Positions 4,448 to 61,328 of a stretch of 64,000 nt of DNA are shown in pieces. The DNA is from Roseivirga sp. (GTDB lineage: Bacteria > Bacteroidota > Bacteroidia > Cytophagales > Cyclobacteriaceae). The position numbers and the translations under genes were made by a program. Within the stretch, counting starts at the first letter, position 1. Each line of letters starts with the position of its first letter. Below the pieces are notes generated by a model that was not told the origin of the DNA, made no database searches, and saw only the letters and a list, made by a program, of their open reading frames with translations. The stretch is taken from assembly GCF_049099775.1 (NCBI RefSeq), contig NZ_JAGDZM010000009.1, forward strand, positions 74,643 through 138,642, in the 5' to 3' direction.

Positions 4448-5596
4448 ATGAACACGCTCTACAAAAACATATTATTAGGTGCATTGGCCTTTTGCGTAGC
4501 AGCATGTGCAACAGGTAAAAATGCTTTTGATAAAGGCGATTACAATACTGCACTCGATCGAGCAGTCAAAAGACTACAATCCAACCCAAATAATAAAAAA
4601 GCACAAGATGTGCTAATGGATGGTTATAGCGTAGCCTCAGATTTCCGTCTAAAAAGAATACAACAGTTTAAGAGAAGTCAAAACGATTTTAAATGGGAAT
4701 CTATTTATCGTGAATATGCTCAATTGAATAACTATTACAGAGATATTCAAAGGTGTCCTTCTTGTATGAGTTTAGTATCTCCAAAAGAATACTTGATAGA
4801 ACAAGAGGAAGCAGCATCGAAAGCCGCCACAGTACAAGTAGATATTGGTAAGGAGAGTTTAAGCCTTAATACTATTGAAACTGCCAGACAAGCTTATAGC
4901 CATTTCGAGATGGCACTTCGCTTCAATAATGATATTCCAGGTATTGATTCATTGCTAACACAGGCCCGATTAATTGGTACTGTCCGTGTCTTAATTGAAC
5001 CTATTCCTATTCATTCTAGAAGTTTAAAATTGACGAATGAGTATTTAGAAAATAAGATGTTCGAATACTTAGATGCTTACAGCAGAGATAGATTTGTTCA
5101 GTTCTTTAATGCACAAGAATCTGAAGAAAGAGGTGTTGAGCCTGATCATATTTTAAGCTTAGAATTCGATGATTTTGTTTTAGGACAAGCAAAAATCGTT
5201 TCGAAAACCGTAGAAATAAAGCGGGATAGCGTGATTGTAGGACAGTATACTGATGATAACGGAAAAAAATTCGATGTCTACAATACGGTTAAAGCTGATT
5301 TTACATCAAATGAAAAGTCACTTTTCTCGGCAGGCGTTTTGAATTTTGAAATTCGAGATGCCTATACCAACAAAGTGCTCACGCAACGAAAACTAAGAAG
5401 TGAGGATGTTTGGAAACATAGCTGGGCATCTTTCAATGGCGATTCTCGCGCTTTGGATAAAGACGAAATTAGAATGTCGAAACGTAAAGAATTACCTCCG
5501 CCAGATCCTCAAACGCTCTTTATTAGCTTTATAGACCGTGTTTATGGCCAAGTAGAAGGCAACATCCGACAGTTCTATCGTAATACAGAATTATAA
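4448..5596 (+). CDS. Hypothetical lipoprotein
   Basis: Lipobox-like VAAC after a hydrophobic signal; helical N-terminal half. Confidence 0.7.
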   Translation: MNTLYKNILLGALAFCVAACATGKNAFDKGDYNTALDRAVKRLQSNPNNKKAQDVLMDGYSVASDFRLKRIQQFKRSQNDFKWESIYREYAQLNNYYRDIQRCPSCMSLVSPKEYLIEQEEAASKAATVQVDIGKESLSLNTIETARQAYSHFEMALRFNNDIPGIDSLLTQARLIGTVRVLIEPIPIHSRSLKLTNEYLENKMFEYLDAYSRDRFVQFFNAQESEERGVEPDHILSLEFDDFVLGQAKIVSKTVEIKRDSVIVGQYTDDNGKKFDVYNTVKADFTSNEKSLFSAGVLNFEIRDAYTNKVLTQRKLRSEDVWKHSWASFNGDSRALDKDEIRMSKRKELPPPDPQTLFISFIDRVYGQVEGNIRQFYRNTEL

Positions 5597-5600
5597 TTCT

Positions 5601-5645
5601 AAACCCTGAAGTAATTTGGCCAAAGGCAAGACTACTTCAGGGTTT
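5601..5645 (+). terminator. Long hairpin / probable terminator
   Basis: 13-bp inverted repeat AAACCCTGAAGTA/TACTTCAGGGTTT right after the stop codon. Confidence 0.65.
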
Positions 5646-5697
5646 CTCTATTCACTGACCTCTTAGATTTTACTATCTTACTTAAAATCGTTGGCCA

Positions 5698-6693
5698 ATG
5701 AAACAGCAATTCCTCGCACTTTCCATTATCCTTATCCTTACTAGCTCATGTTTATCTTCTGATAATAAAACTCCTGTAGAGCTCCCCGAAGATCCAAAAG
5801 CAACATGGCAGATAGTTCAAAATATTGATGTGAATGAAATCAATAATGACCTTGTTGACGGTAAAATGACCATTGATGTCGGCATCTATTTTCCATCGAA
5901 CTTTGATTCAAACTTTGAGAAAGTCACGCTCGATAAAATGATGACGAGCTTTTTAGCAGCTAAAGAAATTTATGCCCCCACTGATGTTCAATTAAAACTA
6001 CTTTGGGTAAAAACCGGAGAAGTAAACCCAAAATACTTTTCCATCGAATCTAACAAAGTACCTACTGTACCCAGAACAGAATATGCCAATATGTATGTAC
6101 ATAGCAAAAGACACCCTTCTATCCCAACTGAAAGAACTTTGAATGCTTTTGATCACATCATAGAACCAGATGAAAGTAATTCAAGAACCATCTATTTAGT
6201 CGTACTTCAAGAAGTATTCTATCCGTTTTTAGCTGTTTCGGAGGGGAGAAATTGGATGACTAAGGCCGTAAGAACGGGAGGTATGTCATTTCCCACATAC
6301 TCCTTTGTGAACACTCTTCCTGAGCGATTCCGAGGGGTAATGACTATAACTAACCTGAGCCGAACAGATCGTTTGAGAAGTACTATTGCTCATGAAATAG
6401 GGCACAAAGCCATGAATGTAAGCCATGAATACATGGATACGGACCCCGAAAATGAAATCTTTGCAGAAGGTGGGCTTATGCTTTATGGAGCTGGGGAGGA
6501 AATACCCTCTGGTGAGGCAGGACGCTGGCATTTAGAACGTTTACACCTATCTCCTTTTATTTATCGCTTAAACAGTGAAGGTGTAAAAATATGGAATGAG
6601 GATTACCTTGAAGGAGGGCACTATTACGACCCTATTTATGGCGATAAAGTAAGGCACTTCAATAGCAAACCACCTATTAAAGAAGACTGGTGA
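5698..6693 (+). CDS. Lipoprotein, putative zinc metallopeptidase
   Basis: Lipobox LTSSC; AHEIGHKAMNVSH zinc motif; GGLM Met-turn-like. Confidence 0.65.
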   Translation: MKQQFLALSIILILTSSCLSSDNKTPVELPEDPKATWQIVQNIDVNEINNDLVDGKMTIDVGIYFPSNFDSNFEKVTLDKMMTSFLAAKEIYAPTDVQLKLLWVKTGEVNPKYFSIESNKVPTVPRTEYANMYVHSKRHPSIPTERTLNAFDHIIEPDESNSRTIYLVVLQEVFYPFLAVSEGRNWMTKAVRTGGMSFPTYSFVNTLPERFRGVMTITNLSRTDRLRSTIAHEIGHKAMNVSHEYMDTDPENEIFAEGGLMLYGAGEEIPSGEAGRWHLERLHLSPFIYRLNSEGVKIWNEDYLEGGHYYDPIYGDKVRHFNSKPPIKEDW

Positions 6694-6737
6694 ATTAACA
6701 AAATGCTAGAAGAGATGTTATGATATAAAACTAGACC

Positions 6738-7502
6738 ATGACTACTCCTCGCACTAAATTCTGGGCTGTAGCAAACGCAATAATTTTAGCGCTTGTTGTT
6801 TATTGGAATTACTATGCCAATGCTCAAGGCATCAATGACAATTCTGTCGGATCGCTTAGCAATCGCTACGATAATTATTTCACCCCTTCCAGTTATGCCT
6901 TTTCCATATGGGGCCTTATATACATTGCCTTAACAATCAATGCAGTTTACCTTATCCGATCAGCTTTTAGCACACAAGACAACTCTTTTATTGCAAAATT
7001 AGGGCCAGCACTTATACTAGCTAACATAGGAAATGCCGCGTGGATATGGCTTTGGTTGACAGAAAGAACTGGAGAAAGCGTAATCGTAATGGCTGCTATT
7101 TTAATAGCACTCATAGGAGCCGTCGTAAGACTAAAGATCGGCACATCAAAAACTACCCTTCCCATAAAAAGATGGGTTTGGTGGCCCACTTCCCTTTATG
7201 CTGGCTGGATTACAGTAGCAATTGTAGCCAATATATCAGCCTATCTGGCCAAAATCGATTGGCAAATTGGTTTAGGTGAAATCAATTGGGCGATTACCAT
7301 GATCGTTATTGCCACGATAGTCTACACCTTAGTTTTGCAAAAGAGAGGTATGCTTACATTTGCCCTAGTCGGCGCTTGGGCCATTCTCGCTATTTCCATG
7401 AAACAATGGGGAGTACAACCTACCATTCAATGGGTTGCACTTACCTGCGCTGTGCTTTTGGTCTTTCAGGTACTTTTGAAGAAAATTTCTTCTGCAAGGT
7501 AG
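6738..7502 (+). CDS. Tryptophan-rich sensory protein (TspO/MBR-like membrane protein)
   Basis: FTPSSYAFSIWGLIY, NAAWIWLW, SLYAGWITVA; about 8 TM segments. Confidence 0.75.
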   Translation: MTTPRTKFWAVANAIILALVVYWNYYANAQGINDNSVGSLSNRYDNYFTPSSYAFSIWGLIYIALTINAVYLIRSAFSTQDNSFIAKLGPALILANIGNAAWIWLWLTERTGESVIVMAAILIALIGAVVRLKIGTSKTTLPIKRWVWWPTSLYAGWITVAIVANISAYLAKIDWQIGLGEINWAITMIVIATIVYTLVLQKRGMLTFALVGAWAILAISMKQWGVQPTIQWVALTCAVLLVFQVLLKKISSAR

Positions 7503-7588
7503 CTTTTGGTTTGTAACTTTAACCTGAAAAAGCGTTAGGAATACACGGATAACTCACTTGTGTATCCTTACCCTGTAAACAAGTTTTA

Positions 7589-10387
7589 ATGAAGGCCAAA
7601 GTTAGAATCTCCATCATTGGTGCTGTACTCATCATCAGCGCGTTTTTCCTTATTTTTTCGAACAAAACTGTCGACAAGAGAGAGGCTTATGAAGCCTTTC
7701 TGAAAGCGGAGTATGCCAAATTTAATACCAGTCATCCCGCTTCTGAAGATGAATCCGAAAGACCGGATCAACCCGACCACGCCTATTTCCTAAACCATCT
7801 TCAAACGCTAGACCCAGCGATTGGTCACGTTCCTTTAGATGGTTTAAATGAAGCCTCAGAAGAAGTGCTTTCTATGAGAAACAGTGCCAATTTGGCCATG
7901 AGCGTGGCAGAAACAAATTCAGATTTAGAATGGAATAACGTACCCGCTGATATTGCCGGGCGTGTAAGAGGAATTGTGATTGATCCTGAAAGACCAACGA
8001 TAGACGACAGAGAAACGACAAGACTATGGGCAGGTTCGGTTACTGGTGGTTTATGGGTAAATGATGATGCAGGTAACCCAGAATCTTCATGGACGCCAGT
8101 TGATGGTTTGAGAGATAACTTAGGGGTTAGCGTTATACGATTCGATCCTGAAAATGACGACGCTATCTACGTAGGAACGGGTGAATCTTATACAGCAGTA
8201 AATATCTACAGGGAATCCTCTTCCGTAGGCAATGGAATTTGGCGATCTACCGATCATGGTGACAGTTGGGAGCAGCTTCAATCAACAACAGATTTTCAAT
8301 ACATTAATGACATTGAAATTCGCATGGAAGGGGAAACGAAAGTTATTTATGTGGCCGTGGTTTCAGGAATTTACAAAGGAGCAACATTCGATTCGACTCC
8401 TTCTGACGGACTTTTCAGATCAGTAGATAATGGGGAAACATGGACGCAAGTTTTACCAAACATACCAAATACAGATTCGCCTTATTCGCCTTCTGATATT
8501 GAAGTAGACGGCATTGGAAGAATGTTTGTTGGTACCATGAGAAACAATGATTTACTAGGTGCTGGAGTAATTCTTTATTCTGACGATGGTTTAGAATGGA
8601 CAGTATTTGATGAAATTACCGAAGCCACTTTCGATCCAGCTAACCAATATTATCCGGGTAGAGTTATTATAAAATCGGCACCCTCTGATCCTAACAGAGT
8701 ATATGCAATTATTAGTGGTGGGTTAACAGAGGCAAAAACTGGTTGGATAAGAGATGCTGGCAGTAACTCTATTATTATACAATCTTTCGATCAAGGCGAT
8801 AGTTGGACACAGTTTGCTTTACCTGATCCATCACTCGGCACTTGGTCAAATATTACTTGGCATGCCGCTACTATTGCCATAAACCCAACAAACCCTAATG
8901 ACATTATCATAGGCGCTTTAAATGGTTTCAAACTTGAAAATGCAGATGCCGCTTCAATCGTCAGTGGATTGAATTGGACACCTACTAGTTTTTGGAATCC
9001 GCCAAGCGGCTCTAAATATGTTCACGCCGATCAGCACGACATAATTTATGACCCTGAGCGACCTGATACTCTTTATGTTTCCACCGATGGTGGTGTTTTT
9101 ATGGGTACAAATGCTCAGGGAGATGCGCCGGTTTTTAGCGAAATCAATAAAGGCTTTAACACCCTTCAATACTATACGCTTGACATTTCGAATCAACGAG
9201 GAGAAGAATTTTTAATGGCGGGTACGCAAGACAATAATACGACTCAGCTATCTAACAGCGTTGTTAGTTTTTTTCCAGGAGCTGGCGGCGACGGGGCGTA
9301 TACTTTTATTGATAAAAATCAACCTGACTTGGTTATTCATTCCTCGCAATACAATCGTTTCAATATAGTTTATGATCGAAATGTACCTTCGAATACAACA
9401 ACAATTGCCAACAGGAGCACAGGGCTATTTATTAATCCCGCAGACTATGACTCTGACAACAACTTATTGTATGCCAACAGAATAGGAATAGACATTAACA
9501 ATAACGAAAACAACACAACGCCACTTTTGAGAGTTCGCGTGGGTAATCAGAGCATTACTGAAACGATCCTTGATCTTGGCGTGGAAATCAACTCTCCTAT
9601 TTCTACCATTAAAGTTTCGCCTTACTCTACCGCGACGAGTTCAAATTTGTTCTTTGGAACACAATCAGGCCGACTTTACCGAACACTGAATGGCGGCCAA
9701 AGTCCATTAACTAGAGAACGGACTGGAACAGAATTCCCTACTTCAAGTATTTCAAGTATTGACGTGGGCCGCTCCGAATCAGAACTATTGGTGACATTTT
9801 CTAACTATGGCGTCAATTCTGTATGGTACTCAAACGATGCCGGGGATACTTGGGAGTCAATCGAAGGCAACTTACCCGATATGCCTGTTAGACAAGGCCT
9901 TTTTAACCCACTAAACAGAGACCAAATTTACTTAGCCACAGAATTAGGCATTTGGTTTTTAGACAGAACTGAGGGTGATGGTTTGACTTGGAGACAAGAA
10001 CAAGTTGGTATTGGCGATATTCGAGTTGACATGATTAAAATTCGTAAAAGCGATGGTTGGTTTGTAGCCGCTACGCACGGAAGAGGCATCTACGAAAGTC
10101 AAATCAATGTAGATGATTTTATTACTTCCACTCCAGAATTGCCGGAGTTAGCGGTAGAAGCTTTTCCTAACCCAGCTACAGAAATTCTTAGGGTAAGATT
10201 GAATGAAAATTGGCAAGGAGAAACCAATATCACCCTAACCGATCTTCAAGGAAGAGACTTTGTGCAACAACAATTCTCTTCATCTGACCTAACGGTGAAT
10301 GTATCTACTTTACCGCGAGGTATCTATTTACTTCGTGTATGGTCGGATAAGTTCAGAAGTAAAACCAAACGAATCTTGCTTCAATAG
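7589..10387 (+). CDS. T9SS-secreted BNR/Vps10-like beta-propeller protein
   Basis: Repeated SxDxGxTW Asp-boxes (STDHGDSW, SVDNGETW, SFDQGDSW, SNDAGDTW), HADQH, ATHGRG; C-terminal type A CTD (FPNPA...LPRGIYLLRV). Confidence 0.85.
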   Translation: MKAKVRISIIGAVLIISAFFLIFSNKTVDKREAYEAFLKAEYAKFNTSHPASEDESERPDQPDHAYFLNHLQTLDPAIGHVPLDGLNEASEEVLSMRNSANLAMSVAETNSDLEWNNVPADIAGRVRGIVIDPERPTIDDRETTRLWAGSVTGGLWVNDDAGNPESSWTPVDGLRDNLGVSVIRFDPENDDAIYVGTGESYTAVNIYRESSSVGNGIWRSTDHGDSWEQLQSTTDFQYINDIEIRMEGETKVIYVAVVSGIYKGATFDSTPSDGLFRSVDNGETWTQVLPNIPNTDSPYSPSDIEVDGIGRMFVGTMRNNDLLGAGVILYSDDGLEWTVFDEITEATFDPANQYYPGRVIIKSAPSDPNRVYAIISGGLTEAKTGWIRDAGSNSIIIQSFDQGDSWTQFALPDPSLGTWSNITWHAATIAINPTNPNDIIIGALNGFKLENADAASIVSGLNWTPTSFWNPPSGSKYVHADQHDIIYDPERPDTLYVSTDGGVFMGTNAQGDAPVFSEINKGFNTLQYYTLDISNQRGEEFLMAGTQDNNTTQLSNSVVSFFPGAGGDGAYTFIDKNQPDLVIHSSQYNRFNIVYDRNVPSNTTTIANRSTGLFINPADYDSDNNLLYANRIGIDINNNENNTTPLLRVRVGNQSITETILDLGVEINSPISTIKVSPYSTATSSNLFFGTQSGRLYRTLNGGQSPLTRERTGTEFPTSSISSIDVGRSESELLVTFSNYGVNSVWYSNDAGDTWESIEGNLPDMPVRQGLFNPLNRDQIYLATELGIWFLDRTEGDGLTWRQEQVGIGDIRVDMIKIRKSDGWFVAATHGRGIYESQINVDDFITSTPELPELAVEAFPNPATEILRVRLNENWQGETNITLTDLQGRDFVQQQFSSSDLTVNVSTLPRGIYLLRVWSDKFRSKTKRILLQ

Positions 10388-47900: not shown

Positions 47901-50465
47901 CTATTTATCAGTTGAACCTTCTTCTTTCTTCTTTTTAGGAGCTCTTTTCTTCTTCACTTTCAGCGTCAATTGATCTGACTTACCATCGTGATCAGCACTC
48001 AAAGTATCTCCTTCGTTGATATCTCCTTTCAAGATCTCTTCGGCTATCTGATCTTCAAGATATTTCTGAATCGCTCTATTCAAAGGTCTTGCACCATATT
48101 GTGGATCAAAGCCCTTATCTGATAAGAAGTCTTTTGCCTTCTCCGTCAAAGTTACTTTGTATCCCATAGCCTCAACGCGACTTAAGAGTTTACCAAGAGA
48201 GATATCAATGATATTATGAATGTCTTCTCTACTTAAAGAGTTGAAGATGATTACATCATCCAAACGGTTAAGGAATTCTGGACTGAAAGTCTTTTTCAAG
48301 GCTTTCTGAATTGTATCCTTCATCATTTCTTCCTCACCGTCACGTTTCGTTTGGGTACTGAATCCAATACCTGAACCGAAATCTTTCAAATCTCGAACAC
48401 CAATATTCGATGTCATGATAATGATTGTGTTTCTGAAATCTACTCTTCTTCCTAATCCGTCAGTTAGAATACCATCGTCCAATACTTGAAGTAAGATATT
48501 GAACACATCTGGATGCGCTTTTTCGATTTCATCTAATAAAACGACAGAGTAAGGCTTTCTTCTCACTTTTTCAGTCAGCTGACCACCTTCTTCATAACCT
48601 ACATAACCTGGAGGCGCTCCTACCAACCTAGATACGGAGAACTTCTCCATATATTCACTCATGTCAATTCTAACCAGTGAATCTTCCTTATCGAAAAGGT
48701 AAGTCGAAAGTACTTTCGCTAATTCTGTTTTACCAACTCCTGTTGGGCCTAAAAACACGAATGTTCCGATTGGCTTTGCGGGATCTTTCAAACCGACTCT
48801 TGTTCGTTGAATCGCTTTGGTCAGTTTCATAATTGCCTCATCCTGACCGATTACTCTACCTTTCAACTGCTCGCCCATACCAACTAATTTGGCTTGCTCT
48901 TTCTGAGCTACACGTTTAGTAGGAATACCAGTCATCATAGCAATTACTTCTGCTACGTTGTCTTCATCAACAGTATATCGCTGGAGCTTACTTTCTTCTT
49001 CCCATTTAGATTTAGCTGTATCTAGCTGATCGATCAGCTTTTTCTCGCTATCTCTTAATTGAGCTGCTTCTTCGTATTTCTGACTCTTTACGACTCTATT
49101 TTTTTCTTTCTTGATGTCTTCAATCGCTTCTTCCAACTTCACAATGTCATCAGGAACGTGAATATTATTGATATGAACTCTAGCTCCTGCTTCATCCAAA
49201 ACATCAATCGCCTTGTCTGGCAAAAACCTATCTGAGATATATCTATCTGATAATTTCACACATGCTTCTAAAGCTTCTTGCGTGTAACCAACATGATGAT
49301 GCTCTTCATACTTTTCTTTGATGTTTTCTAGAATCTGTACCGTTTCTTCAGGAGTAGTAGGGTCCACCATTACCTGTTGGAACCTTCTAGCCAAAGCACC
49401 ATCTTTTTCGATGTATTGTCTGTACTCATCAAGTGTAGTTGCACCAATACATTGAATTTCACCCCTCGCTAATGCAGGCTTGAACATATTCGAAGCATCT
49501 AAAGAACCTGATGCGCCACCGGCACCTACTATTGTATGCAGTTCATCAATGAATAAGATCACCTCAGGCGATTTTTCAAGCTCATTCATTACTGCTTTCA
49601 TTCGCTCTTCGAACTGACCACGATATTTCGTGCCAGCTACTAAAGATGCTAAGTCAAGGGTAACCACTCGTTTTCCGAAAAGTACTCTTGATACTTTCTT
49701 CTGAATAATACGTAAGGCCAAACCTTCCGCAATAGCACTTTTACCAACACCCGGTTCACCAATAAGAATTGGGTTATTCTTCTTTCTACGCGACAGGATT
49801 TGGCCTACTCGTTCTATCTCTTTTTCTCTTCCTACTATCGGATCTAGTTTGCCGTCTTCAGCATATTTGGTCAGGTCTCTTCCGAAATTATCCAAAACTG
49901 GTGTTCTAGATTTTTCGCCTCCCTTTCCTGAAGGTCTATCAGACCCTCCTCCAGAACCACCGCTACTTCCAAACATTTTAGAAGAATCTCCTTCTGGATC
50001 ATCTGTATCTGAAGAGGCCAATGGATTGTCAGTCTGGTATTCTAGCATTTCTTTTACTACTTCATAGTTTACGTCGAATTTCTCAAGAATCTGAGTAGCA
50101 ATATTATCCTCATCCCGAAGGATTGAGAGCAATAAGTGCTCAGTTCCAATCAATTGACTTTTGAAAATTTTTGCCTCTAAATAGGTAATTTTGAGCACCT
50201 TTTCAGATTGTCTTGTCAAAGGAATATTGGCTAAATTCTTCACATTGTGATTTGCCGTTCCTTTGGTAGCGCGCTCTATAGCTTCTCTAAGTTCTTCTAA
50301 AGAAGTACCTAGTTTTTTTAGGATGCTTACCGCAACACCTTCTCCTTCTCGAATCATCCCTAGTAAAAGATGTTCGGTCCCGATGTAATCATGCCCCAAT
50401 CGAAGGGCTTCTTCCCTACTTAATGAGATAACTTCCTTTACTCTATTTGAAAATTTTGCTTCCAT
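47901..50465 (-). CDS. clpC: ATP-dependent Clp protease ATP-binding subunit ClpC
   Basis: Two Clp-N repeats, GEPGVGKS, UVR coil, GPTGVGKT, GAPPGYVG. Confidence 0.96.
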   Translation of the reverse strand: MEAKFSNRVKEVISLSREEALRLGHDYIGTEHLLLGMIREGEGVAVSILKKLGTSLEELREAIERATKGTANHNVKNLANIPLTRQSEKVLKITYLEAKIFKSQLIGTEHLLLSILRDEDNIATQILEKFDVNYEVVKEMLEYQTDNPLASSDTDDPEGDSSKMFGSSGGSGGGSDRPSGKGGEKSRTPVLDNFGRDLTKYAEDGKLDPIVGREKEIERVGQILSRRKKNNPILIGEPGVGKSAIAEGLALRIIQKKVSRVLFGKRVVTLDLASLVAGTKYRGQFEERMKAVMNELEKSPEVILFIDELHTIVGAGGASGSLDASNMFKPALARGEIQCIGATTLDEYRQYIEKDGALARRFQQVMVDPTTPEETVQILENIKEKYEEHHHVGYTQEALEACVKLSDRYISDRFLPDKAIDVLDEAGARVHINNIHVPDDIVKLEEAIEDIKKEKNRVVKSQKYEEAAQLRDSEKKLIDQLDTAKSKWEEESKLQRYTVDEDNVAEVIAMMTGIPTKRVAQKEQAKLVGMGEQLKGRVIGQDEAIMKLTKAIQRTRVGLKDPAKPIGTFVFLGPTGVGKTELAKVLSTYLFDKEDSLVRIDMSEYMEKFSVSRLVGAPPGYVGYEEGGQLTEKVRRKPYSVVLLDEIEKAHPDVFNILLQVLDDGILTDGLGRRVDFRNTIIIMTSNIGVRDLKDFGSGIGFSTQTKRDGEEEMMKDTIQKALKKTFSPEFLNRLDDVIIFNSLSREDIHNIIDISLGKLLSRVEAMGYKVTLTEKAKDFLSDKGFDPQYGARPLNRAIQKYLEDQIAEEILKGDINEGDTLSADHDGKSDQLTLKVKKKRAPKKKKEEGSTDK

Positions 50466-54329: not shown

Positions 54330-54414
54330 AGAGGCGTGGCAGAGTGGTCGAATGCGGCAGTCTTGAAAACTGTTGTACCGCGAGGTACCGGGGGTTCGAA
54401 TCCCTCCGCCTCTG
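54330..54414 (+). tRNA. tRNA-Ser (anticodon TGA)
   Basis: Acceptor AGAGGCG/CGCCTCT, anticodon loop CT-TGA-AA, long variable arm, GGTTCGAATCC. Confidence 0.95.
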
Positions 54415-54426
54415 CACATTATGAAT

Positions 54427-54498
54427 GGTCCGTTCGTCTAGGGGTTAGGACGCCAGGTTTTCATCCTGGTAACAGGGGTTCGATTCCCCTACGGACTA
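54427..54498 (+). tRNA. tRNA-Glu (anticodon TTC)
   Basis: Acceptor GGTCCGT/ACGGACT, anticodon stem CCAGG/CCTGG with loop TT-TTC-AT, GGTTCGATTCC. Confidence 0.95.
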
Positions 54499-54657
54499 CT
54501 TCGAAAGAGCTCAGCTAACGCTGGGCTTTTTTTATGCCCTTCGGGGAGCAACCCGACATGCTGGCCCTTCGCTAGATTCTTCCGCAGGAAGATTCTTTAA
54601 CGCGAGGTCCTCCTACGGACTACTTCAAAAACGCTCAGCTAATGCTGGCTTTTTTTA
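54488..54657 (+). repeat. About 46-bp imperfect direct repeat of tRNA-Glu 3' end plus terminator, 124-bp period
   Basis: CCTACGGACTACTTC-gaaagaGCTCAGCTAAcGCTGGgCTTTTTTT (54488) vs CCTACGGACTACTTC-aaaaacGCTCAGCTAAtGCTGGCTTTTTTT (54612). Confidence 0.85.
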
Positions 54658-54868
54658 TTTAAGACCTCTAGAGTATCCTTACCAAAACTTTCCGCTTAAC
54701 GATTTCCCTTTGTTCGAATCCGTTCGAATAACTGATCGATTACGATCAGAAAATCCTGCTTTTATTTCCATTGTTAATTCCAAACGTTCTCTGAAGCGAC
54801 TGAGTGAAGTTTTACTATTTTGGTATCTTGTTTGAATAAGAGCAACCTGCGTTGGCAAAAACCTTTTC

Positions 54869-57229
54869 ATGCTTAAGAACTACTTCAAGATTGCATTCCG
54901 AAACCTGATTAAAAGAAAGATTACCTCTTTTGTGAATTTAATGGGGCTCGGCATCGGCATTACACTTACGGTTCTACTTATTCTTTATGCCAACTATGAG
55001 TTGGAATACGACACTTTTCATAAATCACCCGAAAACACTTATCGCCTTTTAAGAACTGAAGACCTAGGAGACAATGCGCAAATCTTAGCCAAAACGAGTC
55101 CGAGAATCATGCTTTCAGTAAGAGATGAGTTTTCTGAAATTGCAAGCTCAACCTTAATTTTCAAACATTGGGATATTCCATTACTGGGTGAAATTGACAA
55201 TGGTTTTTATGAGGAAGACTTCATTTTTGCTGACTCTTCATTTTTCAATGTTTTCGGGTATGAGTTAGTTTTAGGAGACGTGCATACCGCACTCGTTGAA
55301 CCCAATTCAATTATCCTTACGGAAAGGATGGCTGAAAAATATTTCGGTAATGAAAATCCCATTGGCCAAACTATTCGGTATCAGCTTCAGCATGACTTAA
55401 AAGTTACAGGCGTAGTTAAGAATAAAGGAAAGATTGGCTCGCATTTCGATTTCGACTTTATGGCATCGATGCCAACATTACGCCAGGTGATGGATTATGG
55501 TATATTAAGCGGTAGTTACAATGGTTTCTATAGTTACATTCGACTTTTACCCGGAACAAACATTGATACCTTCAATCAGAAATATCAAGTTTGGCTTACC
55601 GATCGATTTCCAGAGGAGCAAATCGATTTTCAACCGTTACTAGATATTCACTTACATTCCAATGCTATCTCTGAAATAGAACCTCAAAGCGATATTCTAT
55701 TTGTACGCGTAGTGCTGATCATTGCTATTGTCGTGATCATTTTAGCCACTATCAACTACATCAATTCAGCCGTCTCTACTTCCATAGAAAGACTCAAAGA
55801 AATGGGTGTAAGAATGGTTTCGGGAGCATTTGGACCTCAGATACATCTTCAGTTTATATTCGAATCTATACTTACCATTGGCATTGCTATTATCGCCGCT
55901 TTATTTGCCCTCTATTTTCTGATAAGACCATTTAATGAGCTTTTAGATACCAACTTAGTGTTAGACCCATTGGGGCAATGGGAAATTTGGCTAATCATTT
56001 CTGGCCTTATTCTAACCACGGCCATCATTTCTGGAATTGCCCCTGCAATTGTTATCCTGAGAATGAAATTGACGGATGTGTTATTGAATGTGGTGACCAT
56101 TGGCAAGATTGGGTACCTCCGAAAGGGACTTATGGTGTTTCAATTTGTTATTTCAGTAATACTCATTGTAGGTGCTTTCACCATTAACCGACAGGCGGCT
56201 TATGTAAAGACCAAAGATCTCGGTTTTAAACAAGAAGGCGTGATGGTCGTACCCATTAGAGACTTGGGCATTCATACAAGATTTGAAAGTTTCAAAGACA
56301 AAGCATTATCAGTAGCGGGAGTTACTTCGGTTTCTAGAGGAAATTCTATTCCAGGCCGACCATTTGGCTCAGAATACTACAAACCGGACCCGACAACTAC
56401 GGATTCTATTTTAATGAATATTGCGGAAATAAGTGAAGACTATTTCGAGACGCTAGGCATTAGGTTACTTACCGGTATTGAGTTTGAGTATTTAAAAAGC
56501 ACTGATCTAAAACCGATTATCATAAACCAAACTGTGATATCGGCATTTGAACTAGATAACTCAACTGATGCCCTAGGCCGAAGTATCTTTCATATGGGCG
56601 AGAAATATACAATTGTGGGCGTAATCCAGGACTTTAATTACGAAACGCTTCACAACCGAATTCAGCCTTTAGTGATTCATCCTGGCGAGGCCATGGAAGA
56701 TTTTATGGTGATTAGATATGCCGGTACTAATTCGGAAAGCGTGTCGCAAAGGATTTCTGAGTATTGGTACCTTAATTCATATGAACAACCCTTTAGGCAG
56801 TCTAGTCTTACAGAAGATATGGAAACGCTTTACCAAGCCGAAAAAGTATGGGGAGATATTGGTAATATTTCCATGCTTGCCTCCATAGTTATTGGTGCCT
56901 TAGGTGTTTTTGGACTAGTATCATTAGTTGTACAAAAGAGATTCAAGGAAATGGGGCTTAGAAAAGTATTTGGAGCGTCACATCAGAATATTATTGGCAT
57001 AATTTATAGCGAATTTTTCTCCATTCTGGGTATTACATTGCTCGTTTCAGTACCAAGTGGCTACTACCTTTCTCAATTATGGCTACAAGATTTTGCATAC
57101 CGAATCAATGTTCCGGTAGACGCTTTTGTGTTTGCTTTAGTACTTCTTGCTTCAGTCACTTGCATGGCGGTATTGTTTCACACTTTAAGGGCGCTTTCCA
57201 AAAATCCAATCCATGCCCTGAGCGACTAA
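54869..57229 (+). CDS. MacB/FtsX-family ABC transporter permease
   Basis: MLKNYFKIAFRNL, QPLLDIHL, KEMGVRMVSGA, DLGF, KEMGLRKVFGAS. Confidence 0.92.
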   Translation: MLKNYFKIAFRNLIKRKITSFVNLMGLGIGITLTVLLILYANYELEYDTFHKSPENTYRLLRTEDLGDNAQILAKTSPRIMLSVRDEFSEIASSTLIFKHWDIPLLGEIDNGFYEEDFIFADSSFFNVFGYELVLGDVHTALVEPNSIILTERMAEKYFGNENPIGQTIRYQLQHDLKVTGVVKNKGKIGSHFDFDFMASMPTLRQVMDYGILSGSYNGFYSYIRLLPGTNIDTFNQKYQVWLTDRFPEEQIDFQPLLDIHLHSNAISEIEPQSDILFVRVVLIIAIVVIILATINYINSAVSTSIERLKEMGVRMVSGAFGPQIHLQFIFESILTIGIAIIAALFALYFLIRPFNELLDTNLVLDPLGQWEIWLIISGLILTTAIISGIAPAIVILRMKLTDVLLNVVTIGKIGYLRKGLMVFQFVISVILIVGAFTINRQAAYVKTKDLGFKQEGVMVVPIRDLGIHTRFESFKDKALSVAGVTSVSRGNSIPGRPFGSEYYKPDPTTTDSILMNIAEISEDYFETLGIRLLTGIEFEYLKSTDLKPIIINQTVISAFELDNSTDALGRSIFHMGEKYTIVGVIQDFNYETLHNRIQPLVIHPGEAMEDFMVIRYAGTNSESVSQRISEYWYLNSYEQPFRQSSLTEDMETLYQAEKVWGDIGNISMLASIVIGALGVFGLVSLVVQKRFKEMGLRKVFGASHQNIIGIIYSEFFSILGITLLVSVPSGYYLSQLWLQDFAYRINVPVDAFVFALVLLASVTCMAVLFHTLRALSKNPIHALSD

Positions 57230-57323
57230 AGTAGGGTCTATTTTATAATACGGGTAGTATTAATGTCGTAAGCACAAGTCACTAATTATCTTTTTAAAAT
57301 ATTGAGTTTTTTTAGATTAATGG

Positions 57324-57354
57324 CTTGGATAATGCAATCGATTGCATAATTTTG
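57324..57354 (+). promoter_or_regulatory. Sigma-A promoter with embedded LacI-type operator
   Basis: CTTG-N19-TAATTTTG; perfect palindrome ATGCAATCGATTGCAT at 57332-57347. Confidence 0.7.
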
Positions 57355-57419
57355 TGTCAGACTAGACGAGAGAATAAGACTGACAGTTTTTTAAACGTTA
57401 GATTTCAAAGTAAAAAGTA

Positions 57420-57578
57420 ATGGAGGAGTTAAAAACTGCTCGCGTCTCGAATGAATCTTCTAGAGAGGTTAAAACGCATTCGAACGCTAGCGCTAATTCA
57501 CACGGTTCCCAGAATTTCAATCACCAGCGCGTTTCAGTGAGAGATATTATAGAGAACCATTACCGTAAAGGTAAGTAA
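57420..57578 (+). CDS. Unannotated 52-aa small protein
   Basis: MEELKTARVSNESSREVKTHSNASANSHGSQNFNHQRVSVRDIIENHYRKGK; A-rich initiation context, own promoter and terminator. Confidence 0.6.
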   Translation: MEELKTARVSNESSREVKTHSNASANSHGSQNFNHQRVSVRDIIENHYRKGK

Positions 57579-57579
57579 G

Positions 57580-57605
57580 AACGCCCCGAAAGGGGCGTTT
57601 TTTTT
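57580..57605 (+). terminator. Strong intrinsic terminator
   Basis: AACGCCCC-GAAA-GGGGCGTT followed by T-run. Confidence 0.88.
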
Positions 57606-58077
57606 ATCCGCCTACGCAATTATCTTTCCGATTTGTATCTACCAGATGGAAGATCTTCCATCCAGCATCGGTTTTTCGCAATTGAAAAGAGTTCACACCA
57701 CAGTGTGAAAACTTGTCGCCTAAATAAAACTTAAAGGGTACCCATGCTGATGCCATTCGATCATCTACCAAAATAGGACCGAACTCAATGCGCTCATCCC
57801 ATACTAAATCATGCGGTGTACCAACTGCATTTAAAAAATTGGAGAAGTCACTATTTACAATGGCCGAACCATCGGCTTCGATATTACGAACCCTTTGGAA
57901 AATCACCTGATCGGAGAATACAGAGTGAACCATAGCACTATCTCCTGCTCTCATACCATCAAACATGGTCATAATCGCTTTTTTAATATCCGCTTTATCG
58001 TTTTGTGCTTGGCTTTGGGAGCCAAACGATAAGAGCCCAAAAAGGGCTCCGATTACAATTCTATTTTTCATTTTCAA
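57604..58077 (-). CDS. Secreted NTF2/SnoaL-like family protein
   Basis: Signal peptide; FDGMRAGDS, WDERI, SHCGVNSFQL, WKI. Confidence 0.8.
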   Translation of the reverse strand: MKMKNRIVIGALFGLLSFGSQSQAQNDKADIKKAIMTMFDGMRAGDSAMVHSVFSDQVIFQRVRNIEADGSAIVNSDFSNFLNAVGTPHDLVWDERIEFGPILVDDRMASAWVPFKFYLGDKFSHCGVNSFQLRKTDAGWKIFHLVDTNRKDNCVGG

Positions 58078-58944: not shown

Positions 58945-59628
58945 TTAAGCGGCCAGTGCGCTAATGTTCGGAATAGTAATTAAGCTCCTGCTATAAAGAA
59001 TAGTCCCTTCTTCCTTCAACTCATTAATAAGCGTAGTTACTGTCTGTCTTGATGAACTTATCAGACTTGCGATTTCATTGTGTGTAAGGTAATTTTTGAT
59101 CACCAAGCCGTCTTCGGCAGGCTTACCTTCTTTATGTGCCCAGTCTACCAAGAAACTTTTCAACCTAGCCTTCACATCTTTAAAGACAAGGTTTGCATAT
59201 CTATGCTCTAGTTTTCTGAGCTTCTCGCCCATTTTCTTTGAAAATGATAGGGCTAAACTAGGGTGCTTCTCCATCAGCTTTTCAAATTCTTCCATCGTAA
59301 AAGTGCAAAGTATCACTTCACTCGAAAGAATTTCGGCAAACTCTTGACTTGGCAACATAGACGTGATTGGGATTTCACCAAAAAGATCACCGGTAAGAAT
59401 TATATCCTTGATCATTTCATTACCAAGACCGTCTACTTCGCTTATTTTAATTTTCCCGTTGATGAGGAAGTAGAGTCTCTTAGACTCGTCATTTGCGAAA
59501 TGAATCGTTTGACTCTTTTTCATTCTCACAAAACGTGAGATTGCACATAGATCGTGAATTTGTTCTTTACTTAGGTTGGCAAAGAGATCATAGTTTCTCA
59601 AGTACCAGTATTTTATTTCTTTCTGCAT
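58945..59628 (-). CDS. Crp/Fnr family transcriptional regulator
   Basis: cNMP domain GDLFGE; HTH LTHNEIASLISSSRQTVT. Confidence 0.92.
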   Translation of the reverse strand: MQKEIKYWYLRNYDLFANLSKEQIHDLCAISRFVRMKKSQTIHFANDESKRLYFLINGKIKISEVDGLGNEMIKDIILTGDLFGEIPITSMLPSQEFAEILSSEVILCTFTMEEFEKLMEKHPSLALSFSKKMGEKLRKLEHRYANLVFKDVKARLKSFLVDWAHKEGKPAEDGLVIKNYLTHNEIASLISSSRQTVTTLINELKEEGTILYSRSLITIPNISALAA

Positions 59629-59631
59629 GAA

Positions 59632-60255
59632 TCATAAGTTTATTACCAATTGAATCAGTGCCATAGCGATTAAAATTCCGCCCAACACCTTATTATAGTT
59701 TTTCGTCAACTTTTTGAAGATGAAATCCCGATTCCTGGTAGTAAGCTCGGCAACAAGCCACTGCAGTAAAAATGCACCCAAGGCCGTTCCTATTACGAAA
59801 GCAACTTGAGATGGTAAAGAATTATTTTCTAAAATAGAATTGCTTCTAAGCAACGTAATTATAAAAAGCCAATAAGGATAAAGTTGTGGATTGAGCATAC
59901 CAAACGTAGCGCCTACCCAAAGTTCTTTTCCTTGCTTGTCTAATTTGTTATTCTGTTTTGTTGAGGCTTTTTGTAAAAACAAATAGACCCCGAAAATAAG
60001 CAGGATTCCAACTGTCAAATACTTGAGGTAGTCGTCGAGTCCTTCGTATTGTGATATAAAATTTGAACTGCCAATGGCCAATCCACAATACAATAACTCA
60101 GGTAAACTACCGCCAAGACCGAAGATGATGGCTGCTTTCTTATTCTTATGAAGGGCCGTATGGATTGTACCCATATTAACCGGTCCTAGTTGCAATGATG
60201 CAACAAAACTAATCGCTGTAGCGACTATCAACGCTTCAATTACCGTCCAAATCAT
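59632..60255 (-). CDS. LysE-family translocator
   Basis: SLQLGPVN, FGMLNPQLYPYW; 6 TM segments. Confidence 0.78.
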   Translation of the reverse strand: MIWTVIEALIVATAISFVASLQLGPVNMGTIHTALHKNKKAAIIFGLGGSLPELLYCGLAIGSSNFISQYEGLDDYLKYLTVGILLIFGVYLFLQKASTKQNNKLDKQGKELWVGATFGMLNPQLYPYWLFIITLLRSNSILENNSLPSQVAFVIGTALGAFLLQWLVAELTTRNRDFIFKKLTKNYNKVLGGILIAMALIQLVINL

Positions 60256-61328
60256 TTGGCAGAAGCAGTTTTAGTTCCGTTCATTTGATTTTGAGATAAT
60301 TCATTGGATGAAAAATGAGTTCTCAATAGTCTGAACATTTCCCAAAAAGGAGTAACCCTAGCGCCTTGCTTCATATTTTCGATACTGACTAAACATGAGG
60401 TTTTCATACTTGTCATGGTATCCTTATATGCTTGAAGCAAGCTATATTTTGGATCGTAGATATGACCTGGTTCCGAAGTCACGCCATTGAGCTCCAATAT
60501 TTTTATGTTTCGCCCAGCGTATAAGTCTTCTATCGAACTTACTTTTAAGTCAAATCTCCCAAAATTAAAACCATCTACATCAGCTGCTATCTCATCGAAA
60601 ACACTCACCAATTTATCATTGATTAGGTGTTGCCCACTTAAAAATTTAGTGCCTAAACAGTGGTTTCCAATAGGCTGCAAATTTTCATATGCACCTTTGG
60701 GTAAAACATCGTTTAAATGCGTTCCAAATTTCTCTTCAAGTACAGGCATCTGGAGTTTTGCTCGTTCGCTTTTTGCCAACAAGGTTCGAATTGTTGAAAC
60801 TCCATCTCCAGTTACACCCAAGAATTCCTTTTGTACAATTGAAGTAATATTACTGGTATTACTAATCGGTAACTTGTGATAAAGTACACCGAGCTCAATT
60901 TCAAAATCAACGAATTCTTGAATGATAAAATCCTGATGGTTTTGGGTAATGTAATGTTCAAGGTTCAGTTGGCTGTCCAACTTTTCTACTTCAGCGCCAC
61001 GTTCACCAACATCGGGTTTGATAATCATCGGGAAGGTCAATCCAGTATTAGTAATTCCTGCTACAACATCTGACAAGCTAGTATTAGCTTCAAAGAATAG
61101 CGTAGTGGGTTTATACTTAGGATTAATCTTTTCTAAGATGTCTATTTTGGACTCGCCAAAAACACCTCCATGAATAATTCCAGGATTGGCAGCGGTAAAG
61201 TATGTTAAAGACTTTGCTCGTGCTGCTAAATAAATCCAATAAGGCACTAGAGGCATAAAAAACAACCAAAAGGGCCAATATTCATAGTAGATTATCTTAA
61301 CCAGAAAAAGTGGTAACCTATGTCTCAT
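60252..61328 (-). CDS. ATP-grasp fold protein (D-Ala-D-Ala-ligase-like, function unknown)
   Basis: IIKPDVGERG, IIQEFV, GRFDL, ILELNG. Confidence 0.8.
   Translation of the reverse strand: MRHRLPLFLVKIIYYEYWPFWLFFMPLVPYWIYLAARAKSLTYFTAANPGIIHGGVFGESKIDILEKINPKYKPTTLFFEANTSLSDVVAGITNTGLTFPMIIKPDVGERGAEVEKLDSQLNLEHYITQNHQDFIIQEFVDFEIELGVLYHKLPISNTSNITSIVQKEFLGVTGDGVSTIRTLLAKSERAKLQMPVLEEKFGTHLNDVLPKGAYENLQPIGNHCLGTKFLSGQHLINDKLVSVFDEIAADVDGFNFGRFDLKVSSIEDLYAGRNIKILELNGVTSEPGHIYDPKYSLLQAYKDTMTSMKTSCLVSIENMKQGARVTPFWEMFRLLRTHFSSNELSQNQMNGTKTASAK

Follow-up and report, generated by a model that had tools for sequence, protein, structure and literature searches.

Metabolism-tuning small proteins have been studied extensively in Enterobacteria and Bacilli, and SgrS/SgrT, AzuCR and Spot 42/SpfP are examples of carbon-regulated dual-function RNAs. 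To our knowledge, few such small proteins have been described in Bacteroidota, and we know of neither Hfq nor ProQ in this phylum. CcpA, one of the regulators of the Bacillus subtilis RNA SR1, is a LacI-family protein. By our comparison, SR1 with its peptide SR1P is the closest working likeness to the Roseivirga locus described here. Transcription of SR1 is repressed under glycolytic conditions by CcpN and CcpA (PMC3526287), and SR1P acts by binding the enzyme GapA (PMC5013986). The layout is the same, namely a short stand-alone transcript (predicted in our case) that has a promoter and a terminator to itself and codes for a small peptide, with conservation of the peptide as well as of the RNA sequence in both systems. 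They differ in that they share no sequence similarity and belong to different phyla, and SR1 has proven base-pairing (ahrC), whereas what suggests an RNA role in Roseivirga is the freezing of synonymous sites. Control is also arranged differently, since here one perfect operator lies inside the core promoter and the effector may well be a uronate, as opposed to the glycolytic signal of SR1.

A second group for comparison comprises SgrS/SgrT, VcdRP/VcdP, AzuCR/AzuC and Spot 42/SpfP, in which proteins of 15-43 aa are encoded on small-RNA-sized, carbon- or sugar-responsive transcripts. Small proteins of the VcdRP type bind a transporter, an enzyme or a regulator (PMC8672173; reviewed in PMC12310071, PMC12612679). 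These gammaproteobacterial RNAs are controlled by SgrR or cAMP-CRP and rely on Hfq, whereas the Roseivirga unit carries a LacI-type operator and shows no homology to them. Because it has neither sequence similarity to these RNAs nor a proven RNA function, the unit falls outside the SR1, VcdRP, SgrS and AzuCR families. An earlier sequence-only reading of this DNA had stated that a sugar-regulated small protein or dual-function RNA of this kind was not recognised as characterised. As regards the kind, this statement has to be withdrawn, since sugar-controlled small proteins and dual-function RNAs are known from other phyla (SR1/SR1P, PMC3526287; VcdRP, PMC8672173); what is new is this protein family, its occurrence in this phylum, and its presumed link to uronic acids.

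Operators of the LacI family are palindromic motifs with an even length of 16-22 nt and CG at the centre, and the majority of local regulators in this family are autoregulated (PMC4052901). In Bacteroides, the LacI-family regulators UxaR, UxuR and KdgR have been predicted by comparative genomics, and neither of the studies concerned reports a small protein as a member of their regulons (PMC4052901, PMC3878776). The gene analysed here encodes a 52-aa protein and lies in a 64-kb stretch of Roseivirga DNA, the whole of which is referred to below as the window. A literature search on small proteins, the transcriptome or glucuronate use of Roseivirga returned nothing relevant.

A self-contained unit between two convergent genes

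The unit occupies an intergenic gap of 374 nt (57230-57603). Upstream lies an FtsX/MacB-type permease gene (54869-57229, plus strand); the convergent neighbour, on the minus strand at 57604-58071, encodes a SnoaL/lumazine-binding-like product of 155 aa and has its stop codon at 57604-57606. The sequence-only reading had assigned a promoter, a palindrome, an ORF and a terminator to this gap, and all four were found where it had placed them. The -33 element CTTG (57324-57327, plus strand) is separated from the -7 box TAATTTTG (57347-57354, plus strand) by 19 nt, the spacing that had been claimed. Between them lies the perfect 16-bp even palindrome ATGCAATCGATTGCAT (57332-57347), an operator of the LacI-family type with a central CG, whose last base is the first T of the -7 box. 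The predicted 5'UTR (57359-57419, plus strand) is A-rich before the ATG and has no Shine-Dalgarno sequence. The small-protein gene follows at 57420-57578 on the plus strand, with exactly the translation reported earlier. It is followed by an intrinsic terminator (57577-57605), formed by the stem 57580-57587/57592-57599 with a GAAA loop, an A-rich stretch before it and a T run after it.

The -33 consensus TTTG of Bacteroidota sigma-A promoters is established knowledge. With an exact match of TAATTTTG to TAnnTTTG, three of the four bases of TTTG present in CTTG, and a 19-nt spacer, the promoter is, as judged from its sequence, a standard Bacteroidota sigma-A promoter. In mapped flavobacterial promoters the -7 box spans -12 to -5 (PMC9723704), which would place the transcription start, inferred in this way, at about 57359 and the operator at about -27 to -12. 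From this position it follows that a protein bound to the operator would have to exclude RNA polymerase. The predicted transcript, from about 57359 to about 57605, is about 245 nt long.

Conservation is concentrated on these elements. Among nine close orthologs, 29 of the 31 columns from CTTG to TAATTTTG are invariant, compared with 17 of 81 directly upstream of the promoter and 11 of 59 in the 5'UTR. The TTG of the -33 element is present in 20 of 22 distinct promoter variants, some of which carry TTTG. The -7 box is kept in all orthologs, its nn positions being variable and three variants departing at one T of TTTG. The operator is preserved more strictly still: its core, TGCAA[A/T]CG[A/T]TTGCA, lies between the -33 and -7 elements in 22 of 22 promoter variants, with changes in these 14 bp confined to the bases flanking the central CG. 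The full site, ATGCAA[A/T]CG[A/T]TTGCAT, a pattern also written ATGCAAWCGWTTGCAT, occurs in 20 of 22, and the remaining two depart from it at the outermost 5' base alone. The operator is centred 80 nt ahead of the ATG; in 12 of 14 metagenome loci the core begins 81-91 nt upstream of it, the exceptions being a variant with a UTR deletion (49 nt) and one unparsable fragment.

The palindrome alone proves nothing, because perfect 16-bp palindromes are not rare in the window, where five occur against a simulated mean of 1.5 and maximum of 5. Two of the other four, those that were checked, sit within long ORFs. The argument from rarity was dropped for this reason, and what raises the palindrome above chance, on sequence grounds, is its conservation together with its genomic company elsewhere. 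Further operator-like sites in the window (at most three mismatches) are at chance level, with 7 found and 4.0 expected.

The terminator had been described as a strong GAAA-tetraloop structure just past the stop codon, and its energetics agree: the hairpin AACGCCCC-GAAA-GGGGCGTT at 57580-57599, followed by the T run to 57605, folds at -18.7 kcal/mol (z = -5.2). In six orthologs the corresponding values range from -16.6 to -21.1 kcal/mol, with z from -4.1 to -7.1. Compensatory stem changes are present (ACGCCCC/GGGGCGT versus GTGCCCC/GGGGCAT), and in deeper orthologs the stems are entirely different, the hairpin being kept in every ortholog. That a consensus scanner overlooked this hairpin is due solely to the possible extension of the stem into the T run. 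With an A-rich stretch ahead of the stem and the convergent stop codon inside the T run, the terminator probably acts in both directions and serves both convergent genes.

The 5'UTR, by comparison of its alignment columns, is the variable part, and a natural deletion of 36 nt was found there in L001 and L143. A hairpin at 57355-57385 with a T run was considered as an attenuator and rejected, since it folds no better than shuffled sequence (z = +0.4, -0.7), its 5' arm lies upstream of the predicted start, and it is naturally deleted in two independent assemblies. Homologs of the region occur in metatranscriptome assemblies and in presumed RNA runs (X9-X13, X25, X28, X29, X32), whose contigs also include promoter and upstream DNA and, being assembled, carry no strand or end information, so that they could reflect DNA carry-over or read-through. 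Assembled contigs of runs X34-X36 yielded nothing from this region. We infer both transcription from this promoter and translation of the ORF from their conservation.

The first protein search returned eight relatives of the peptide (71-85% identity, 51-53 aa), and only four more were gained from a profile search against 1.84 billion representative proteins. An operator scan of genome contigs led to an ortholog of 46 aa (L133) on the chromosome of a Roseivirga sp., and 13 further orthologous loci came from metagenome contigs. Promoter, operator, ORF and terminator are all kept in about 22 distinct orthologous loci from Roseivirga genomes and marine metagenomes. One member is annotated as a hypothetical protein of Roseivirga pacifica. 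Homologs are 46-53 aa long, apart from one 72-aa gene call. As far as seen, the family seems limited to Roseivirga and close relatives. The 52-aa protein gave a single, chance-level match in Pfam (TCTP, E = 0.15), none in NCBIfam, and none in a PDB profile search with E up to 10. Rfam, searched at the gathering threshold over the whole window and at an E-value threshold over 57200-57650, returned two tRNAs and otherwise only chance-level hits. An antisense ORF (57398-57520) was set aside as not conserved.

The gene is kept upstream of a block encoding SnoaL-like, DUF2807, Crp-type regulator, LysE and ATP-grasp-like proteins. Its upstream flank differs between loci, and the terminator is directly followed by a 2.3-kb insertion in some relatives. 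The unit had been called self-contained, which is borne out by the orthologs: promoter, ORF and terminator stay together in every one while the flanks change, so that, judging from this comparison, the three travel as one piece.

The operator and its putative regulon

The two halves of the operator, ATGCAATC and GATTGCAT, make up a perfect 16-mer with a central CG, in agreement with the description of LacI-family operators (PMC4052901). The exact 16-mer was scanned in one genome per species, and at least 120 loci matched; LacI/PurR-family genes were sought in the 8-kb stretch at each listed locus with E. coli LacI and PurR sequences as queries. A LacI/PurR-family gene stands beside the 16-mer in 65 of the 120 matches listed, and two of these regulators were confirmed by Pfam as LacI plus Peripla_BP. 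The N-terminus of the regulator could be aligned in 62 loci, in 33 of which the site lies 0-150 bp upstream of the regulator start and in another 10 of which it lies 150-400 bp upstream (43 of 62 at 0-400 bp). In most of the remaining loci the 16-mer is found just beyond the 3' end of the regulator gene. Judged by position, such an arrangement is typical of a local LacI regulator that controls its own gene, and on every feature testable here the palindrome belongs to the LacI-operator class, which upholds the LacI-type assignment made in the sequence-only reading.

The same reading had noted that the window holds no LacI gene, and none was found in the 64 kb; likewise, neither a LacI gene nor a hexuronate gene was detected in the window or within 6-10 kb of any ortholog. 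Two protein searches were started from Bacteroidota hexuronate-type regulators, and no LacI protein named Roseivirga appeared among the best 120 of 6200 hits or the best 120 of 3249 hits, with thousands of hits lying beyond the best 120. Roseivirga is represented among the 16-mer matches listed by one locus, which is the ortholog itself.

Genes for UxaC, UxaB(-like), UxuA, KduI/KduD or UxaE accompany the 16-mer in at least 15 loci, all of them from Bacteroidota. These hexuronate loci come from Aquimarina, Draconibacterium, Saccharicrinis, Sunxiuqinia, Mucilaginibacter, Chryseobacterium, a Saprospiraceae MAG and others, and 14 of 15 also hold a LacI-family gene whose product is 39-100% identical to the Aquimarina regulator. 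Prolixibacteraceae show the same fusion of operator and -7 box, the last T of the one being the first T of TAnnTTTG, ahead of GH88 genes. The 16-mer precedes sulfatase genes in Aquimarina, one of them directly downstream of a TRAP-transporter gene. The 16-mer-linked regulators of Bacteroidota match the predicted UxaR/UxuR/KdgR branch of Bacteroides.

The 16-mer associated with UxaR/UxuR/KdgR in Bacteroidota is identical to that at the Roseivirga small-protein promoter; the Roseivirga target differs from the members of those regulons in being an orphan small-protein gene far from sugar-acid genes. We consider it possible, at close to an even chance, that the Roseivirga gene belongs to a uronic-acid regulon. 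This reading is held no higher because the Roseivirga regulator is not among the best hits listed, because the 6-10 kb around the orthologs contain no sugar-acid gene, and because LacI regulators of Proteobacteria share the 16-mer. In Proteobacteria the same 16-mer occurs with distantly related LacI regulators (24-33% identity) and with other neighbour genes, so the operator sequence cannot by itself fix the effector.

The encoded protein and alternative readings

The protein carries the C-terminal motif NHQRVSVRDIIENHYRK. Over the 15-codon motif xQRVSV[RK][DE]II..H[YF]R, six deep lineages give a pooled pS of 0.74 and pN of 0.18 (pN/pS 0.24), and variability follows the codon, with changes at 15 of 15 third, 7 of 15 first and 5 of 15 second positions. 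Synonymous use is broad (Arg as CGT/CGA/CGC/AGA/AGG, Ile as ATT/ATC, Tyr as TAC/TAT), and the replacements are conservative (R/K, D/E, I/L, Y/F). The L133 ortholog retains the motif with nearly every codon changed. It had been expected that VSVRDIIENHY would be conserved with synonymous changes, and in the deeper relatives this is what the pN/pS ratio and the varying third positions indicate. The variable part of the ORF contains an in-frame 3-nt indel, and the frame of the 52-aa ORF is the sole open frame in 16 of 16 orthologs. In the close clade, the 3' half of the ORF is near-invariant in nucleotides and the N-terminal half has pN about equal to pS. On these codon patterns, the ORF encodes a protein under selection.

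The N-terminal part of the protein is polar and predicted to be disordered, with the islands MEELK and VKTHS. In the AlphaFold2 model the chain is disordered except for a single helix at residues 40-49 (pLDDT about 86), in accordance with the disorder and the short amphipathic C-terminal helix proposed from the sequence alone. The invariant residues V40, I43, I44, H47 and Y48 (i, i+3, i+4, i+7, i+8) share one face of this helix, and the variable residues lie opposite. The protein most likely docks onto a partner through the conserved helix face.

One property of the locus is unaccounted for by a protein-only model, namely the near-frozen synonymous sites of the close clade, and these raise the question of a function at the RNA level. 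Among the nine close orthologs, synonymous sites of the neighbour gene are saturated (pS 0.65-0.9, apart from one near-identical pair); at conserved residues the small ORF keeps the same codon in 20 of 23 cases, whereas the neighbour gene varies in 66 of 72 (Fisher P = 2e-12). Codon bias is an unlikely cause, because the frozen codons include ATA and AGA, which in our reading would not be favoured codons. A 1-nt indel before the stop codon changes RKGK-stop to RKR-stop amid invariant nucleotides, the whole transcript folds with z = -2.9, and the start-codon region GUAAUGG (57416-57422) is complementary to CCAUUAC (57558-57564). The predicted unit is of small-RNA size (about 245 nt) and encodes a conserved small protein, as dual-function RNAs do, and RNAs of the same layout are known (SR1/SR1P, PMC3526287; VcdRP, PMC8672173). 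The 3' coding half might act in the RNA as well as in the protein, by base-pairing with target mRNAs from its regulon, by long-range pairing with the start-codon region, or by forming a structure that controls its own translation or stability. Against this, deeper lineages change synonymous sites freely (pS 0.74), which makes any RNA constraint specific to one clade; RNAalifold gives the 3' coding half -2.5 kcal/mol, one covarying pair and no conserved structure; and the 5'UTR, a frequent home of base-pairing regions, is poorly conserved. We regard a dual function as possible but unlikely. The most specific version, in which this would be the first LacI-controlled dual-function RNA in Bacteroidota, with a protein tuning a uronate enzyme or transporter and a 3' half pairing with regulon mRNAs, appears distinctly improbable. 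The reverse extreme, a non-coding small RNA whose ORF is an accident of high nucleotide conservation, could appeal to the close clade, with its N-terminal pN about equal to pS and its 3' half conserved at the nucleotide level, and to the missing Shine-Dalgarno sequence, yet such an absence is normal for this phylum (PMC6847099). It is hardly compatible with the codon signature of the deep lineages (pN/pS 0.24, 15 of 15 third positions variable), the L133 motif with nearly all codons changed, the sole open frame in 16 of 16, the in-frame indel, the conservation along a helix face and the lack of an Rfam match, and we give it almost no credence. A small-protein gene thus remains the preferred reading of the ORF.

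The palindrome, too, allows another reading, in which it is bound by a regulator outside the LacI family, for example the Crp/Fnr protein encoded 1.4 kb away (58945-59628), or is a mere favoured spacer. Some Crp/Fnr proteins use a 5-N4-5 site geometry. TGCAA-N4-TTGCA has this geometry, the Crp/Fnr-type gene is syntenic in most orthologous loci, and no LacI gene was found near any ortholog. However, the Crp gene is absent from L001-L004 and was not called in the 10 kb around L017, and the operator is intact in all of these; in the 120 listed 16-mer loci, a relative of this Crp protein accompanies only the ortholog, whereas a LacI-family gene is present in 65. The central CG never changes and the two flanking bases vary, which is the pattern of LacI sites (PMC4052901) and not that of Crp/Fnr sites, whose centre is free. 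As for a favoured spacer, 16 invariant bases exceed what the -33 and -7 elements need. The neighbouring Crp-type regulator is not supported as the cognate factor, given the loci that lack it and the company of the 16-mer elsewhere, and binding by any non-LacI protein, or none, is very unlikely. Repression by a LacI-family protein is the reading carried forward below.

Proposed mechanism and significance

Taken as a whole, the locus is best explained as a LacI-repressed, sugar-induced gene for a small protein with a partner-docking helix, an explanation we consider likely. The unit would be a monocistronic gene for a 52-residue cytoplasmic protein, driven by a strong Bacteroidota sigma-A promoter; a high-affinity operator would fill the spacer of this promoter, and the LacI-family repressor that recognises it would be encoded at another place in the genome. 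Bound at about -27 to -12, this repressor would exclude RNA polymerase; on binding its sugar effector it would release the promoter, and the RNA of about 245 nt, from 57359 to about 57605, would be made and translated. The likeliest regulon would be that of uronic-acid (hexuronate) catabolism, the identical 16-mer being the putative UxaR/UxuR/KdgR operator elsewhere in Bacteroidota. The mostly disordered protein would then probably dock the helix face formed by V40, I43, I44, H47 and Y48 onto a partner, for instance an enzyme, a transporter or a regulator belonging to this pathway.

The reach of the finding is limited, as the family is apparently confined to one genus and its function is not assigned. 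It nevertheless concerns the phylum chiefly responsible for degrading polysaccharides in the sea and the gut. From a perfect operator of a recognisable class one can predict when the gene is switched on, and from the short conserved helix, which part of the protein is active. The proposed connection with uronic acids, if true, would add a post-translational or RNA layer to a regulon known as a set of enzymes and transporters. Scanning for orphan LacI-type operators can uncover small genes of no known function.

Coding sequence and leader of the small ORF

Among nine close orthologs, the synonymous sites of the distal part of the small ORF (52 aa, window 57420-57578, plus strand) are nearly frozen at window 57507-57578, while those of the neighbouring gene are saturated (P = 2e-12). 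The start-codon region contains GUAAUGG (57416-57422), which is complementary to CCAUUAC at 57558-57564, within the frozen stretch. In two independent assemblies of relatives (L001 and L143), a 36-nt deletion, equivalent to window 57355-57392, takes out the 5'UTR hairpin together with its T run; these two loci encode the same protein as L003, in which the segment is kept. The representative-protein search also returned P0015 (287 aa), which has five tandem repeats, each carrying ASVRDIIGNSHGD; its match to the C-terminal motif of the small protein is weak (E = 7e-4), and P0015 is probably unrelated.

Variable segments on both sides of the gene

Upstream, a segment whose content varies among relatives comes after tRNA-Ser(TGA) and tRNA-Glu(TTC) (window 54330-57229; 2426-3721 in L003 and L004). 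It is occupied by an FtsX/MacB permease in the window, L008, L009, and L016, by a tyrosine integrase and three more genes in L003 and L004, and by neither of these in L001 and L006. The segment adjoining the tRNA genes looks like an integration hot-spot.

Downstream, some relatives carry a 2.3-kb insertion, with genes for a YHS-domain protein and an AraC-type regulator, precisely between the terminator and the convergent SnoaL-like gene, at the point equivalent to after window 57609 (L009, 4509-6714; also assembled contigs of sequencing run X3). The L016 insertion at the same point (5192-8461) is larger and additionally carries a beta-lactamase-fold gene. Further downstream lies a conserved block (window 58945-61328) with genes for a Crp/Fnr-type regulator and a LysE-type exporter, as well as for a protein of 358 aa that weakly resembles ATP-grasp (RimK-like) proteins; the Crp gene is absent from the block in L001-L004.

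The operator palindrome within and beyond the window

Including the operator (57332-57347), the window contains five perfect 16-bp palindromes, exceeding the simulated mean of 1.5. The others are TTCAAGAATTCTTGAA (3629), AAATGCTATAGCATTT (24410), AGCTGATCGATCAGCT (49024, within an 854-aa ORF at 47901-50465), and ATGGAAGATCTTCCAT (57646, within the convergent gene).

Among the genome contigs containing the exact operator 16-mer, it adjoins LacI genes in Xanthomonadales (Stenotrophomonas, Luteimonas, Pseudoxanthomonas), Oxalobacteraceae (Duganella, Undibacterium), and other groups. At the sole such locus examined (L025, Pseudoxanthomonas), the neighbours, as read from the ORFs, resemble an MFS transporter, an oxidoreductase of the Gfo/Idh/MocA type, and a TIM-barrel isomerase rather than hexuronate genes. 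A single operator sequence is thus common to distant LacI subfamilies.
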